From: an uncultured Acidobacteriota bacterium | GTDB lineage: Bacteria > Acidobacteriota > Thermoanaerobaculia > Thermoanaerobaculales > Sulfomarinibacteraceae | Direction: 5' to 3' | Assembly: GCA_963727925.1 (NCBI GenBank) | Contig: CAVSIS010000053.1 | Span: 32,319 to 96,318 of the forward strand | Length of the DNA: 64,000 nt | Shown here: one piece after another, positions 34,474 through 39,625 of the stretch | Layout: each line of letters opens with the position of its first letter | Numbering within the stretch: the first letter of the stretch is position 1 | Notes under the pieces: generated by a model | What the model saw: only the letters and a program-made list of their open reading frames with translations | Told to the model about the DNA's origin: nothing | Database searches by the model: none | Position numbers and translations under genes: made by a program

Positions 34474-34584
34474 AGGGGTAAGAAGGTGAGAAGGTGAGAA
34501 GGGGGATCGTAGGGGCGGAGCTTGCCTCCGCCCGGTGGGACCGAAGGTGTTCCCAGCACGGGCGCACGCAAGGTGCGCCCCTAC
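34474..34584 (+). repeat. Octamer tandem plus inverted REP doublet
   Basis: (GAAGGTGA)n, GTAGGGGCGGAGCTTGCCTCCGCCC (34509), GGGCGCACGCAAGGTGCGCCCCTAC (34560-34584). Confidence 0.8.
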
Positions 34585-34740
34585 ACCAAGCTGCTCAGCT
34601 CGCAACCCTTCTCGGCTCGGCTGCCTGAGATCCTCAAGGGCATTCCACAACCTCAAACGGTCGTACTACACAGGACCGCAGAAGACTCTCGGGTGGGGGG
34701 GTGGCTCAGTGTCTCTGTGCCTCTGTGGTCTTCTGTTCGA

Positions 34741-34765
34741 GAACCTCGGTGTGGGTTTCTCCGTT
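34741..34765 (+). promoter_or_regulatory. ECF-type promoter GAACC-N16-CGTT
   Basis: Upstream of the DUF4097 gene. Same architecture at 63584-63608 (-). Confidence 0.5.
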
Positions 34766-34807
34766 CATCGCTGTGGAGACGTCATGCTCACATTCCGGGA
34801 GGTTGAC

Positions 34808-35785
34808 ATGCGTGTTCGCTGGATGGTCGTTCTCGTCGTCACCGCGCTCGCCCTGCTGTTCGTCCCCGCCGTCGCGTCGTCCGCGTCACAGGCGGTCCAC
34901 GAGAGCCACAGCTTCGCCGTCGACGGCGCCCGCCGGGTGATGGTAGACGCCAGCTTTCAGGACGTCGTGGTAACGGTTCGTCCCGGTGCCACGGTCGAGG
35001 TCAAGGTCGACATGGAGTTCACCGGCTCCCGGGCCGAGCGCCTCGCCAAGGAATATGCGCCGCGGTTCAAGGAGGTCGGCGGCGAGCTGCGCGTGATCTC
35101 CAAGCGCGAGAACGGATCGTGGAGCTTCGGCGGCTGGAGCGACCGCAGTTCCGGCACGATCACCGTGGCGATGCCCCCGGGCCTCGATGTGACGATCGAC
35201 GTGTCCTCGGGCGACGTCCACATCGACGGCGACCTCGGCGATGCCGAAGTGCTGTGCGACACCTCCTCGGGCAACTGCGAGATCTCCGGCGCGATGCGGT
35301 CCCTGAGCGCCGACACCTCCTCCGGCGAGGTCCGCATCCGGCTCACCCGCGAGACGGAGGAAGTCGTCGCCGACACCTCGTCGGGCAACGTGGTGGTCGA
35401 GGGTCCAGCGCGGACGCTCAAGGCGGACACGTCGTCCGGCGACATCCAGGCCGATGGGCTCCTGGGGGACGCCAGCTTCGACACCTCCTCGGGGGACGTC
35501 GAGGCGAGCTGGGCAGTCGCGCCCGGAGCCGCCCGCGTGGTGGCGGACACCAGCTCCGGCGAAGTCACCTTCGCTTTTCCGGCCGGAACGGAGCTCGACG
35601 GGCTGATCAGCACCTCGAGTGGCGACATTCGCTCGGACTGGAACGGCGACCGTAACCGCCACGGCGACGAGCTCCGGCTCGAAGGCGGCGCCGGTGCAGT
35701 CCGCCTGCGGGTCGACACCTCCTCTGGCGACGTGACGCTGCGCCAGGGCCGCGCCACCGCGGTCGAGGCCGCGCCGGGGCACTGA
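34808..35785 (+). CDS. DUF4097/putative adhesin beta-strand repeat protein
   Basis: Signal peptide and about nine (D/S)TSSG(D/E/N)-type repeats. Confidence 0.88.
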   Translation: MRVRWMVVLVVTALALLFVPAVASSASQAVHESHSFAVDGARRVMVDASFQDVVVTVRPGATVEVKVDMEFTGSRAERLAKEYAPRFKEVGGELRVISKRENGSWSFGGWSDRSSGTITVAMPPGLDVTIDVSSGDVHIDGDLGDAEVLCDTSSGNCEISGAMRSLSADTSSGEVRIRLTRETEEVVADTSSGNVVVEGPARTLKADTSSGDIQADGLLGDASFDTSSGDVEASWAVAPGAARVVADTSSGEVTFAFPAGTELDGLISTSSGDIRSDWNGDRNRHGDELRLEGGAGAVRLRVDTSSGDVTLRQGRATAVEAAPGH

Positions 35786-35804: not shown

Positions 35805-35945
35805 CGGTGAAGGGTGAAGAGAAAAGGGTGAAGAGTGACGGGGCGGAGCTTGTCTCCGCCCGGCCTCGACCATCACACGGGAGCAGACAAGCTGCTCCCC
35901 TACGACTGACTCAGGCGGCGATTCCGGCACGGGCGCAGGTCAGGC
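35805..35945 (+). repeat. Heptamer tandem plus REP doublet plus conserved tail
   Basis: (GGTGAAG)n, GGGGCGGAGCTTGTCTCCGCCC, GGGAGCAGACAAGCTGCTCCCCTAC (35879-35903). Tail shared with 39757-39797. Confidence 0.8.
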
Positions 35946-35957
35946 TACACTCATGCA

Positions 35958-36170
35958 ATGGACCCGAGTGACGTCTCTCCCCGGTGCCCGTTGTGCGGCG
36001 GGCGGGCCGTGCTCAGGGGGCGTTGAAGCGGTCTCGTCATCGTGTGCACGGCGTGCACCGCGGAGAGACCGGCGAGCCAGCACCCCGAGGTGATCGAGGC
36101 CTACCAGCGTGCCATGCTGCGAGCCGCCGGCTGGCTGGACGAGGACGCTCCCGACTCGCCCTCAGGCTGA
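35958..36170 (+). CDS. Predicted small dual-CxxC selenoprotein (70 aa, in-frame UGA at 36024-36026)
   Basis: MDPSDVSPRCPLCGGRAVLRGR-U-SGLVIVCTACTAERPASQHPEVIEAYQRAMLRAAGWLDEDAPDSPSG*. TACACT -10 box lies 6 nt before the ATG and a hairpin follows the UGA. Confidence 0.72.
36029..36071 (+). promoter_or_regulatory. Candidate bacterial SECIS hairpin
   Basis: Lower stem CGGTCTC/GAGACCG, upper stem GTGCAC-GGC-GTGCAC (36044-36058). Confidence 0.6.
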
Positions 36171-36247: not shown

Positions 36248-36270
36248 AGGAATCCGCGCAGCGGATTCCT
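36248..36270. terminator. Hairpin at the icmF 3' end
   Basis: AGGAATCCGC-GCA-GCGGATTCCT between convergent genes. Confidence 0.55.
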
Positions 36271-36271
36271 G

Positions 36272-39200
36272 CTACATGCTCCTGCGATACCGCCCGCCGA
36301 CCTCGTAGAGTGCGTTCGAGATCTGCCCGAGCGAGGCGGAGCACACCGTGGCGAGCAGCTCCTGGAACAGGTTGCCGCCGGAGCGGGCAGTGTCCTGTAG
36401 GCGCGCCAGCGCTTCGGCCGACAGGTCGGCATGGCGCTGCCGGAAGTCGTGCAGGTGCGCGAGACGGGCGTCCTTCTCCTCCTTGGTCGCGCGGGTGAGC
36501 GGGGTGTCGTCGGCGGTCTCGGCGCCCTCGCGGAGGAAGGTGTTGACCCCGACGATCGGGTACTCACCGGTGTGCTTGAGCCGCTCGTAGTGCAGCGACT
36601 CCTCCTGGATCTTGCCGCGCTGGTACATCGTCTCCATGGCGCCGAGCACGTCGCCGCGCTCGGACAGGCGCTCGAACTCGTCGAGCACCGCCTCCTCGAC
36701 CCGGTCGGTGAGCCACTCCACGATGTGCGAGCCCTGGAAGGGGTTCTCGTTCTTGAGCAGGCCGAACTCGAGGGCGTTGATGAGCTGGATCGCGATCGCG
36801 CGCCGCACCGACTCCTCGGTCGGGGTTGTGATCGCCTCGTCGTAGGCGTTGGTGTGGAGGCTGTTGCAGTTGTCGGCCATCGCCAGCAGCCCCTGCAGCG
36901 TGGTCCGGATGTCGTTGAAGTCGATCTCCATCGCGTGCAGCGATCGGCCCGAGGTCTGGATGTGGTACTTGAGCTTCTGCGAACGCTCGTTGCCCTGGTA
37001 CCGGTTGCGGATCGCGATCGCCCAGATCCGCCGCGCGACCCGGCCGATCACGGTGTACTCGGGGTCCATGCCGTTGGAGAAGAAGAAGCTCAGGTTGTGG
37101 GCGAAGTCGTCGATGTGCATCCCGCGCGCGAGGTAGGTCTCGACGTAGGTGAAGCCGTTGGCGAGGGTGAAGGCGAGCTGGGAGATCGGGTTCGCGCCGG
37201 CCTCGGCGATGTGGTAGCCCGAGATCGACACCGAGTAGAAGTTGCGCACCTTCCAGTCGGTGAAGAGCTGCTGGATGTCGCCCATCATCCGGAGCGCGAA
37301 CTCGGTCGAGAAGATGCAGGTGTTCTGGGCCTGGTCCTCCTTGAGGATGTCGGCCTGAACGGTGCCGCGCACGACGTGCATGGTGCGCTTGAGCACTTCG
37401 CTCCACTCGCCGTCGGCGAGCAGGGGAGCGATGGCGTCCCAGTCCCTGCCGTCCACCACCGGCTGGAAGGCGGCCTCGGGCGGGGCGTCGAGCCGGCCCG
37501 ACTCGATCAGCCGCTTGCGGGCCTGCTGGCGGGCGGCAGCGTTGAAGAACATCGCCAGGATCATCGGCGCCGGGCCGTTGATGGTCATCGACACCGAGGT
37601 CGCCGGAGCGCACAGGTCGAAGCCGGCGTAGAGCCGTTCCATGTCCTCGACGGTGCAGATCGAGACCCCCGACTCGCCGACCTTGCCGTAGATGTCAGGC
37701 CGGGTGTGGGGATCCTCCCCGTACAGCGTGACCGAGTCGAAGGCGGTCGACAGGCGCACCGCGGGCTGGCCCTCGGCGAGGTAGTGGAAGCGCCGGTTGG
37801 TCCGTTCCGGGCCGCCCTCGCCGGCGAACATCCGGGTCGGCAGCTCCTGGGTGCGCTTGAGCGGGAACACGCCGGCGGTGTAGGGAAAGGCGCCGGGAAC
37901 GTTTTCGAGGAACAGGTAGCGGAGGATCCCGGGCCAGGTGATGAAACGCGGGAGCTGCACCTTCGGCACCTTGGTTCCGGACAGCGAGGTCGAGGTCAGG
38001 GGGACGCGGATCTCCTTGCCGCGGACGGTGTAGCTGAACTCGTCGCGGGCGAAGTCGGCGCGGATTTTCGGCCAGGCGGCGAGTAGTTCGCGGGAGTCAT
38101 AGTCGAGTCCGTGGGCGCGGCGTCGGATCTCAGCGTCGAGGTCGGCGAGGTGGGGCTCGGGGGTGGCCTCGGCGGCCGTGATCTCCTCGAACAGTTTCCA
38201 CAGGTCGGCCTGGCCGCCCTCGCCCTCGCGGGCCGACAGGATGGCTCGGGCCCCGACCAGCTGGTAGAGCCGGTCGGCGACCGCGATCTGCTCGTCGGCC
38301 CATGCCTTGTAGGAGCGCACGGACTTGGAGATCTCGCGCAGGTAGCCGGAGCGCTCGCCGGGGATCACGGGGTGGCGCTGGGGCGGGCCGATGGGCTTCG
38401 CCCTGGTCCCCTCGAGAGACCAATATCCGTCGTGGTCCGCGGCGAGGCGGCGCACGATCGCCTGGTAGAGGGCGTTGACGCCGTGGTCGTGGAACTGGTG
38501 GGCGCAGGTCGGGAAGACCGGGAGCTCCTCGTCCGCCGGGCCTTCGAACAGGACGTGGCAGCGGCGGTACTGCTTGCGCACGTCGCGTAGCGCGTCGAGC
38601 GCGCCCGGGCGGTCGAACTTGTTGATCGCCACGAAATCGGCGTAATCGAGCATGTCGATCTTCTCGAGCTGCATCGCGGCGCCGTACTCGGGCGTCATCA
38701 CGTACAGCGAGAGGTCGGCGATGTCGACGATCTCGGAGTCGGCCTGGCCGATGCCGGACGACTCGACCAGAATGAGGTCGAAGCCGGCGCCCTGGCAGAT
38801 GGCGATCGCCTCCTGGATGTGGCCCGAGAGCGCCCGGTGGGCCTGGCGAGTGGCGAGGGAGCGCATGAAGACGCGGTCGGAGCCGATCGCGTTGAACCGG
38901 ATCCGGTCGCCGAGCAGGGCGCCGCCAGTCTTGCGCTTGGTGGGGTCGATCGAGAGGATTGCAATCGTCAGCTCCGGAAAGTCGGCGAGGAAGCGCAAAA
39001 CGAGCTCGTCGGTGAGCGAGGACTTTCCGGCGCCGCCGGTTCCGGTCGATCCGAGCACGGGGGCGGGAGTCGCGCGCTTGGGGATCGCCACCGTCTGGCC
39101 GGCTTCCGCACGCGAGATCGCGCGCGCCACGTCGAGCCATCGCTCAGCGCCGGCGCCGAGCTCGTCGCCTCCAGGCAGCGCGGCGGGGTCGAAATCCGCG

Positions 39201-39625
39201 GCCTCGATCATGGCGTCGATCATGCCGTCGAGACCGAGCCTGCGGCCGTCCTCGGGCGAGAAGATCTTGGTCACACCATAGGCTTCGAGCTCCGCGATCT
39301 CGGACGGCACGATCACGCCGCCGCCACCGCCGAAAACCTTCACGTGGTCGGCGCCGCGCTCGCGCAGCCGATCGACCATGTAGGTGAAGAACTCCATGTG
39401 CCCGCCCTGGTAGGACGACACGGCGATGCCCTGGGCGTCCTCCTGGATCGCGGCGTCGACGATCTCGGCCACCGACCGGTTGTGGCCGAGGTGGATGACC
39501 TCCGCGCCGTGGGCCTGGAGGATGCGGCGCATGATGTTGATCGCGGCGTCGTGTCCGTCGAACAGGCTCGCGGCGGTGACGAAGCGGACCTTGTGCTTCG
39601 GGACGTAGGCGGGCTTCTGATGCAT
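36272..39625 (-). CDS. icmF: Fused isobutyryl-CoA mutase / MeaB-type GTPase chaperone
   Basis: B12-binding [45 protein letters not shown]; 1117 aa. Confidence 0.95.

Follow-up and report, generated by a model that had tools for sequence, protein, structure and literature searches.

A 70-codon gene carrying one in-frame TGA was found in the window, a stretch of 64,000 nucleotides (nt) from an acidobacterial metagenome-assembled genome (G000:C53:32319-96318), where the list of open reading frames (ORFs) leaves an apparent intergenic gap. Judged from sequence comparison, the gap almost certainly holds a real gene in which the TGA at 36024 encodes selenocysteine (Sec, U). That the gene is real, that its TGA is read as Sec and that it stands beside a known family of small dual-CxxC (seleno)proteins is, taken jointly and with function excluded, very probable. 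The G000 assembly comprises 3.6 Mb in 58 contigs, with 68.9% G+C and 79% completeness. The gene was found to contain the following elements.

35958..36170, + strand: putative selenoprotein gene running from an ATG over 70 codons, the 23rd being the Sec-TGA, to a terminal TGA stop at 36168-36170
35985..35996, + strand: first CxxC knuckle (C10-P-L-C13, motif CPLCG); C10, P11, C13 and G14 invariant in 18/18 homologues, their codons synonymously variable
36024..36026, + strand: in-frame TGA, almost certainly read as Sec, residue 23; same column in 18/18 homologues and in the 15/15 matching genomes of a class-wide sample
36041..36060, + strand: conserved upper hairpin of the putative selenocysteine insertion sequence (SECIS), 8 pairs, bulged U36043, apical loop GGC at 36050-36052
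36045..36056, + strand: second CxxC knuckle (C30-T-A-C33), whose codons form the SECIS-like hairpin; C30 and C33 invariant, always TGC
36029..36071, + strand: window-specific lower stem (36029-36035 with 36065-36071), present in the minimum free energy (MFE) fold of the window, unconserved

The start codon ATG occupies 35958-35960 and the frame was found to stay open to 36170 except for the one TGA, with the translation MDPSDVSPR-CPLC-GGRAVLRGR-(TGA 36024-36026)-SGLVIV-CTAC-...-DSPSG. The gene looked like a gap because the mechanical ORF list holds only a 42-residue piece starting at GTG 36042 (36042-36170), the full frame being missing from it. The G+C content at third codon positions was 0.86 upstream of the TGA and 0.87 downstream. 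The first-pass annotation, made from the sequence alone, had described this frame, its absence from the ORF list and the unbroken third-position bias, and all three were confirmed on direct reading. Its central proposal of an unannotated selenoprotein gene was likewise upheld by the conserved TGA, the purifying selection on both sides of it, the SECIS-like hairpin and the presence of selB and selD in the genome.

Conservation of the TGA and of the downstream hairpin

The translated frame, with stops read through, was compared with 60 related genomes and G000 itself. Matches were found in 10/61 genomes including G000 (E 6e-44 to 9e-10), each containing exactly one TGA; the nine genomes other than G000 gave E 1e-34 to 9e-10, and the remaining matches had E >= 0.002. 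When one genome from each of 185,579 species was scanned for the sequence pattern, 172 matches were obtained, of which 16 loci were confirmed, with TGA at the Sec column in 16/16. Eight of these 16 loci repeated sequences of the first search with identical translations, and 18 distinct homologues were pooled, showing 39-80% identity to the window protein. Their records were metagenome-assembled genomes labelled Acidobacteriota, Thermoanaerobaculia, Thermoanaerobaculales, Holophagae or Sulfomarinibacteraceae, and one Methylomirabilota. All 18 share an alignment core without gaps, in which the TGA keeps one column (18/18), the core reading C-P-[LV]-C-G-x-x-A-x-L-[RKH]-G-[RG]-TGA-x4-I-V-C-[TR]-x-C-T, so that the conservation on both sides of the TGA for which the first-pass annotation had proposed a search was observed.

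In the class-wide sample, 15/401 Thermoanaerobaculia genomes were found to match, every one with a single TGA; counted by genus the figure was 8/133. All 15 genomes belonged to one of 23 families (14/64 excluding G000), and the other 22 families contained none (0/336). Among 5.8 billion clustered proteins searched, 17 matched, all of them fragments of 36-49 residues starting just past the TGA. The clade is not annotated as a full-length protein in public sets, since all 17 database proteins begin after the TGA. Contigs of two public soil runs spanned 36024-36026 and showed no difference there; these runs possibly derive from the source sample and were not counted as independent. Their coverage of the stretch was partial, the uncovered parts being uninformative.

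Purifying selection at the protein level flanks the TGA on both sides. Codons 8-22, upstream of the TGA, showed a mean proportion of synonymous differences (pS) of 0.64 and of nonsynonymous differences (pN) of 0.21, with a mean pN/pS of 0.33, and codons 35-56, downstream of the hairpin, showed a mean pS of 0.61 and a mean pN of 0.35, with a mean pN/pS of 0.58. The invariant upstream residues C10, P11, C13, G14, A17, L19 and G21 were each encoded by 2-4 different codons.

RNAalifold was applied to 69 nt around the TGA and gave one consensus hairpin, the pairs of which were counted on the 18-sequence alignment. The upper hairpin contained the pairs C36041-G36060, G36042-C36059 and G36044-C36058 through C36049-G36053, and was present in 18/18 homologues with an MFE of -7.6 to -10.6 kcal/mol. 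Six of its pairs were kept in 18/18 sequences and one in 17/18, while the closing pair was G-C in 9, C-G in 5 and unpaired in 4 of the 18. This closing pair was the sole covarying pair, with five sequences changed on both sides, a Thr-to-Arg replacement (ACG to AGG) going together with a silent change at the third position of the codon two further on. The apical loop was found to contain 3-5 nt starting with G-G or G-U in the homologues. A two-stem hairpin had been described directly after the TGA, with the loop G 23 nt downstream. Both stems were found in the window, and the position count placed the loop G 23 nt past the A of the TGA; only the upper stem was conserved. In the lower stem (CGGTCTC/GAGACCG), the pair at columns 19-53 was unpaired in only 2 of the 18 sequences, and the other six pairs in 11-14. 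The 60-nt fold of the window had an MFE of -26.3 kcal/mol.

The codons of the hairpin were found to be nearly frozen. Hairpin codons 28-34 had a pS of 0.12, roughly five-fold lower than the value of about 0.6 in the codons flanking them. Ile was ATC, Val was GTG and both hairpin Cys were TGC in 18/18, whereas the Cys codons of the first knuckle varied (C13 being TGC in 13 and TGT in 5). Residue 31 was always encoded by ACG (Thr) or AGG (Arg); Arg31 was AGG in 13/13, other Arg columns being mostly CGN, and the loop G, which is the third base of codon 31, was invariant. The rules for bacterial SECIS elements quoted in the legend of Fig. 2 of PMC13188914 ask for a loop of 3-9 nt, a stem of 4-16 bp, a G in the first two loop positions, a distance of 16-37 nt from the UGA and an MFE <= -7.5 kcal/mol. 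The present hairpin agrees with all of the values compared (loop 3-5 nt, stem 8 bp, spacing 23 nt, MFE -7.6 to -10.6 kcal/mol). When the genome was scanned with a regular expression describing the apical hairpin, 8 sites matched, of which only that of the selenoprotein gene was in a SECIS-like position. No match to the hairpin was found in Rfam, the sole match being a chance-level miRNA (E 0.61) upstream of it. From this pattern the hairpin is in all likelihood a SelB-dependent signal for Sec insertion.

Selenocysteine machinery, predicted fold and family placement

The genome was found to contain selD (369 bits) and selB (335 bits, with SelB winged-helix and beta-barrel domains). ARAGORN listed 35 tRNA genes and one tmRNA, with no tRNA-SeC in the genome, and two marginal Rfam matches to tRNA-Sec were rejected as tRNA-Ser. 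No selA was found in the assembly, and two long frames upstream of selB had no Pfam or NCBIfam match. Among relatives, selB was above cut-off in 58/61 genomes of the order sample, selA was found in 5/5 close relatives and tRNA-SeC(tca) in 4/5, both being present in G002, a 98%-complete genome of the same genus. The tRNA-SeC gene adjoins tRNA-Ala(ggc) in three of these four relatives, and tRNA-Ala(ggc) was also absent from the G000 list. The selA and tRNA-Sec gaps were read as missing assembly because both genes are present in relatives and tRNA-Ala(ggc) is missing as well. The check for sel genes suggested in the first-pass annotation gave selB and selD in G000 itself, with selA and tRNA-SeC seen in G002 and other close relatives. 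No tRNA with anticodon tca besides tRNA-SeC was found in the close relatives, and none among the 35 tRNA genes of the genome. The TGA codon is the ordinary stop of the upstream DUF4097 gene, where it follows a full-length Pfam match. In the proposed mechanism, SelB carrying Sec-tRNA(Sec) would bind the hairpin while the ribosome stands at the UGA, and selenocysteine would be inserted, as at E. coli fdhF.

The selD gene was located at G000:C49:42001-43299 (L001:1216-2514) and encodes 433 residues with an N-terminal 'putative Se/S carrier protein-like' domain (PF11823). The body of SelD is an AIR-synthase-type selenophosphate synthetase without an in-frame stop, hence a Cys-type SelD. Searches of G000, G002, G007, G014 and G017 with TIGR01553 and TIGR01591 brought up no formate dehydrogenase alpha subunit whose gene contains an in-frame TGA; TIGR01553 had no match in G000, and TIGR01591 had sub-cut-off matches without stops in 3/5 close genomes. 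Two weak TGA-containing matches elsewhere in the genome, at G000:C44:16306-16422 (-; E 0.013 to the protein) and G000:C44:217936-218013 (+; E 0.53 to NF041197), are probably due to chance.

The AlphaFold2 model, built on the 18-row alignment, had a mean predicted local distance difference test (pLDDT) score of 85.6 and a predicted template modelling (pTM) score of 0.65. It contained strands at residues 16-20, 27-30 and 36-38, followed by a helix at 43-57. The protein would fold as a zinc ribbon in which C10, C13, C30 and C33 surround one predicted structural metal, since C10/C13 precede strand 1 and C30/C33 follow strand 2 of the model, and a C-terminal helix would come next. Sec23 would lie in the turn of residues 21-26 (G-[R/G]-U), which caps the beta-hairpin at the end distant from the metal, and would be exposed and flanked by basic residues; an invariant Gly was found at position -2 of Sec, and basic residues also precede it. 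A zinc ribbon bracketing the TGA had been suggested from the two CxxC motifs: the predicted secondary structure fits it, while Foldseek against the PDB gave no significant match (best E 0.14), the top entries being the zinc ribbons ZifS (8yoz), aIF2-beta, RPB9 and TFIIB. No significant match was found in the PDB sequence search either (best E 0.046), which listed rubredoxins (E about 1) and the zinc-ribbon carrier LysW (E 0.1) weakly. For P0022, a relative with Cys in place of Sec, the nearest structural clusters of the Atlas were dual-CXXC (seleno)protein and then zinc ribbons.

A structural Cys4 metal site together with a separate catalytic Sec or Cys occurs in MsrB. On the modelled geometry, the window protein may be a small redox or chalcogen/metal-transfer protein with the exposed selenolate as its reactive group, a suggestion offered tentatively, at somewhat less than an even chance, the metal-binding redox role put forward in the first-pass annotation being a conjecture too. 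A more specific and improbable version would take the clade as obligately dependent on Sec, since no Cys form of it was found in any search made. The protein would then be a small carrier and not a classical oxidoreductase, a metal-stabilised zinc ribbon with the exposed tip selenolate as a covalent shuttle; its cargo would be selenium, sulfur or a soft metal, carried as LysW or ThiS carry theirs. The SECIS and the second zinc knuckle may then be one co-evolving element, in which case the protein motif could not change without loss of Sec insertion.

Among NCBIfam models the window protein matched NF041197 best, the model for dual CXXC motif small (seleno)proteins: with U entered as C it scored 24.7 bits (E 1.9e-5), and with the stop unread 15.4 bits. 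Residues 10-47 were found to align ungapped on positions 1-38 of NF041197, placing U23 on position 14, which is a Cys in P0022. A profile of the 18 sequences was run against 1.84 billion representatives and gave 56 matches at E <= 0.001. Of these, 39 were fetched together with five more from the protein search (P0002, P0007, P0008, P0011 and P0013); those left out of the 56 were P0019, P0023, P0030, P0038, P0041, P0042, P0046, P0049, P0057, P0058, P0061 and P0063. The matches were sorted by eye as collinear or Lar-like. Sixteen collinear small proteins of 54-82 residues were found to contain the spacing CxxC-9-X-6-CxxC and the C-terminal helix pattern of the window protein, with Cys at X in 8 and Trp in 8, and the rest of the fetched matches were mostly Lar-like zinc ribbons with a W-N-x-R helix motif. 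NF041197 was the top NCBIfam match for 9/10 collinear proteins tested. Two of them, P0022 (45.2 bits; profile E 3.0e-10) and P0029 (45.1 bits; profile E 2.7e-8), pass the NF041197 cut-off and have Cys at the Sec column. Their spacing is that of the window protein (C10xxC13-9-U23-6-C30xxC33), and in all three the first Cys falls on profile position 1 and the variable residue on position 14.

The apparent Trp at the Sec column was checked on DNA for the P0036 clade (left out were P0021, P0024, P0025, P0027, P0035, P0043 and P0045). In 20/20 metagenome loci (L077-L096; about 30-52% G+C) the codon was found to be TGA, and downstream of each TGA a hairpin spans the codons of the second CxxC. The Trp forms of this clade are an artefact of gene calling, the gene callers behind them seeming to have used a TGA=Trp code.

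A family of small dual-CXXC (seleno)proteins with U or C between the motifs had been named in the first-pass annotation, and this family exists. NF041197 is entered twice in a review table (PMC13188914), as OS_HP3 with the motif RxU and as 'hypothetical protein DW' with the motif GxU; OS_HP3 comes from delta-proteobacterial symbionts of Olavius (PMC1976440) and protein DW from Desulfosarcina (PMC12013277). The portions of text available from PMC13188914, PMC1976440 and PMC12013277 give no function for the family, and 'Acidobacteri' has 0 occurrences in the available text of PMC13188914. The suggestion of a divergent new member also held, given the identical spacing, the TGA on the Sec/Cys column of the family and the score of 24.7 against the 40-bit equivalog cut-off. 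By sequence, the gene is placed as a divergent sister subfamily of NF041197/OS_HP3: it belongs with that family by homology, while a score below that cut-off keeps it from being counted as an equivalog. It is distantly related to Lar-type zinc ribbons.

Weighing of alternatives and genomic setting

Several observations count against the reading of the gene as a Sec-encoding member of this group. The absence of selA and tRNA-Sec from a 79%-complete assembly is one of them, and is weak evidence given the incompleteness. The pattern scan, the protein search and the class sample contained no Cys form inside the subfamily; of the Cys/TGA pairs that had been proposed as a check, those found lie in distant collinear relatives (8/16), on which the Sec/Cys pair rests, and none within Thermoanaerobaculia. 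The NF041197 score falls short of its equivalog cut-off, and the Lar model PF14354 scored 25.1 bits (E 2e-5) against a gathering threshold of 28.6. The hairpin is built from codons of invariant residues (I-V-C-x-x-C-T), so its conservation is partly driven by the protein, and only one of its pairs covaries. The 60-nt fold was unexceptional (z-score -1.82, with 9/200 shuffles folding equally well); in the test of the whole structure the covariation score was alone in exceeding all 500 shuffles, and the true pairing (0.103) was outscored by a partner slide of -2 (0.145). No RNA run was found among the sequencing runs queried for the stretch. No neighbouring gene was conserved beyond the genus among the homologue loci compared, so the context gives no functional lead. 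The predicted metal binding, the predicted geometry of Sec and metal and any presumed redox activity are read from the secondary structure of the model.

Were the TGA at 36024 a true stop, the product would be a 22-residue peptide, possibly with a separate 42-residue protein from GTG 36042, which is how public gene callers treat the region. The 17 clade proteins of the database, all starting past the TGA, would accord with this, as would codon 29, which is GTG in 18/18 and keeps a start codon always to hand, and the terminator, which is also TGA in 17/18 homologues. However, the residues between the TGA and GTG 36042 are conserved in frame (I28 being invariant), the window has no Shine-Dalgarno sequence before 36042, the relatives with Cys at the column are single polypeptides of 54-76 residues, both CxxC halves fall into one zinc-ribbon domain of the model, and the invariance of the GTG is explained by its frozen position inside the hairpin. 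This makes termination at 36024 very improbable, and readthrough in which near-cognate decoding or an altered code places an ordinary amino acid (Trp, Cys or Gly) at the TGA is improbable to the same degree. The latter could draw on the W recorded in public protein sets at the Sec column of 8/16 fetched collinear relatives and on the tRNA-Sec and selA gaps of G000, but the W forms of the P0036 clade are TGA and not TGG, the only anticodon-tca tRNA in relatives is tRNA-SeC with none among the 35 of G000, TGA terminates the neighbouring DUF4097 gene, selB is nearly universal in the order and the hairpin resembles a SelB-binding element. For a tiny ORF in a single metagenome-assembled genome, easily over-read in 69% G+C DNA, one might suspect gene decay through a nonsense mutation at 36024, or a fault of sequencing or assembly there. 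Such a mutation or error was taken as ruled out, at a negligible residual probability, because the TGA is conserved and both sides are coding: the same TGA stands in 18/18 independent assemblies with protein identities as low as 39%, purifying selection acts on either side of it, and the contigs of the two soil runs, possibly from the source sample and then not independent, agree at 36024-36026.

For function, the rather unlikely competing account is a rubredoxin-like FeCys4 redox centre, or a Lar-like modulator of a nucleic-acid enzyme, with Sec of secondary importance. Knuckles of the CPxCG type also occur in rubredoxins, to which, as to LysW, weak PDB matches were obtained; sub-threshold matches to Lar models and many Lar-like proteins in the profile search point the same way, as does the position of the gene in low-GC relatives beside dnaX-ybaB-recR, topA or rimP-nusA. 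All rubredoxin and Lar matches were nonetheless sub-threshold (TIGR03655 giving 20.3 bits, E 5e-4, vs a cut-off of 39.6), the neighbours differ from clade to clade, and the fact that the wider family has strictly kept a Sec or Cys at the tip of the hairpin speaks for this residue as the functional centre.

Two further elements were found around the gene.

35946..35951, + strand: TACACT, -10-like hexamer 6 nt before the ATG, candidate leaderless promoter
36249..36269, no strand: perfect 9-bp inverted repeat (GGAATCCGC / GCGGATTCC, 3-nt loop), read directly in the sequence

The hexamer had been noted earlier as a -10 box of a leaderless-like gene. A TAnnnT hexamer was found 6-7 nt before the start in 5/5 closest homologues, none of which contained a Shine-Dalgarno sequence, while the more distant homologues mostly had GGAG-type Shine-Dalgarno sequences instead; a scan for consensus sigma-70 promoters found none at the gene. 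The hexamer stood as described, the promoter scan was empty, and a leaderless mRNA is plausible from the sequence. The GGAATCCGC / GCGGATTCC repeat sits between the selenoprotein gene and the convergent icmF-like gene and is a possible two-way terminator; it was not listed by a terminator scan that requires a T-run.

The upstream neighbour is a gene for a DUF4097 'toastrack' protein (34535-35785, +), and the downstream neighbour, convergent with the selenoprotein gene, encodes a fused mutase of 1117 residues (36272-39625, -) with B12-binding, MeaB GTPase and methylmalonyl-CoA mutase domains, IcmF-like. These two neighbours were common to genus members only. The other Thermoanaerobaculia loci had in common a histone-deacetylase-like gene, a ParA/Mrp-like ATPase, an HTH_25 protein and an aldo-keto reductase, mostly on the opposite strand. 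In the low-GC relatives, the gene was found on the same strand just upstream of dnaX-ybaB-recR in 6/12 loci (L083-L086, L088, L090), just downstream of topA in 2 loci (L093, L095) and upstream of rimP-nusA in 2 loci (L080, L082), all of these neighbours handling nucleic acids. A short hairpin repeat was present at 35870-35906, between the DUF4097 gene and the selenoprotein gene, with the core GGGAGCAG-ACAA-GCTGCTCCC. This 22-nt core was found in 4 copies in the genome, the others being at C11:6572 (-) and at C55:557 and C55:612 (+), and in the soil runs the repeat occurred on several contigs with unrelated flanks.

Significance and comparison with known systems

A genuine selenoprotein gene, on the present reading, has been invisible to standard annotation: public sets contain truncated fragments of it, or Sec entered as Trp in one relative clade. 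Counts of the dual-CXXC family and of Sec use in Acidobacteriota are probably too low for this reason. The clade widens the range of a family without an assigned function, which the available text of PMC1976440 and PMC12013277 describes from Desulfobacterota only. In this soil lineage selB is near-universal (58/61), yet the small selenoprotein was found in only 15/401 class genomes, and a search of 5 close genomes showed no selenoprotein of the formate dehydrogenase type. The RNA signal appears to be written in the codons of a protein motif, and the hairpin is so near the E. coli fdhF element that direct expression in E. coli may work, which would make the function more approachable.

Compared with solved zinc ribbons (ZifS 8yoz, aIF2-beta, RPB9/TFIIS, LysW), the modelled protein shares the three-stranded sheet and the two Cys knuckles, whereas the solved structures contain no conserved Sec or Cys at the hairpin tip, as far as the matches show. 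The Lar family shares the CP[FL]CGG-x-A knuckle, the beta-hairpin and the second CxxC followed by a helix. It differs in the W-N-x-R helix motif, which the window protein does not contain, and the hairpin tip of most Lar-like proteins holds no conserved Cys or Sec; no link of the window gene to phage or restriction was seen.

In E. coli fdhF (NC_000913.3), the UGA at codon 140 precedes a hairpin in which a UGCA/UGCA stem carries the loop GGUC and one U is bulged on the 5' side. The UGCA/UGCA stem, a loop starting with GG or GU and a single 5' bulged U were found in both elements, and GGTC occupied the corresponding place in 13/18 homologues. The loop lies 23 nt past the UGA here and 18 nt past it in E. 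coli fdhF, and the present stem is 1-2 pairs longer, with a loop of 3-5 nt. In E. coli, SelB makes contact with the loop G and U and with the bulged U.

The closest likeness is to the NF041197 family, with which the window clade shares the small size, the CxxC-9-[U/C]-6-CxxC spacing and a C-terminal helix with the pattern [DE]-x-[IV]-E-x-[WYF]-[KQ]. The Gly at -2 of Sec recalls protein DW, given in the table of PMC13188914 with the motif GxU, and the SECIS-like hairpin lies over the second CxxC codons in both the window clade and the P0036 clade. The window clade differs in its second knuckle, which is C-[TR]-x-C-T and not C-x-x-C-G, in its own IVC and P-A-S motifs and in the leaderless appearance of its closest five sequences. 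Every member found has Sec, whereas the wider family also contains Cys forms. The clade occurs in Acidobacteriota genomes, whereas NF041197 was reported from Desulfobacterota in the available text of PMC1976440 and PMC12013277, the supplements of which may include Acidobacteriota. The system is of a known kind, a divergent sister clade of a known family, which makes the finding solid and only moderately novel.

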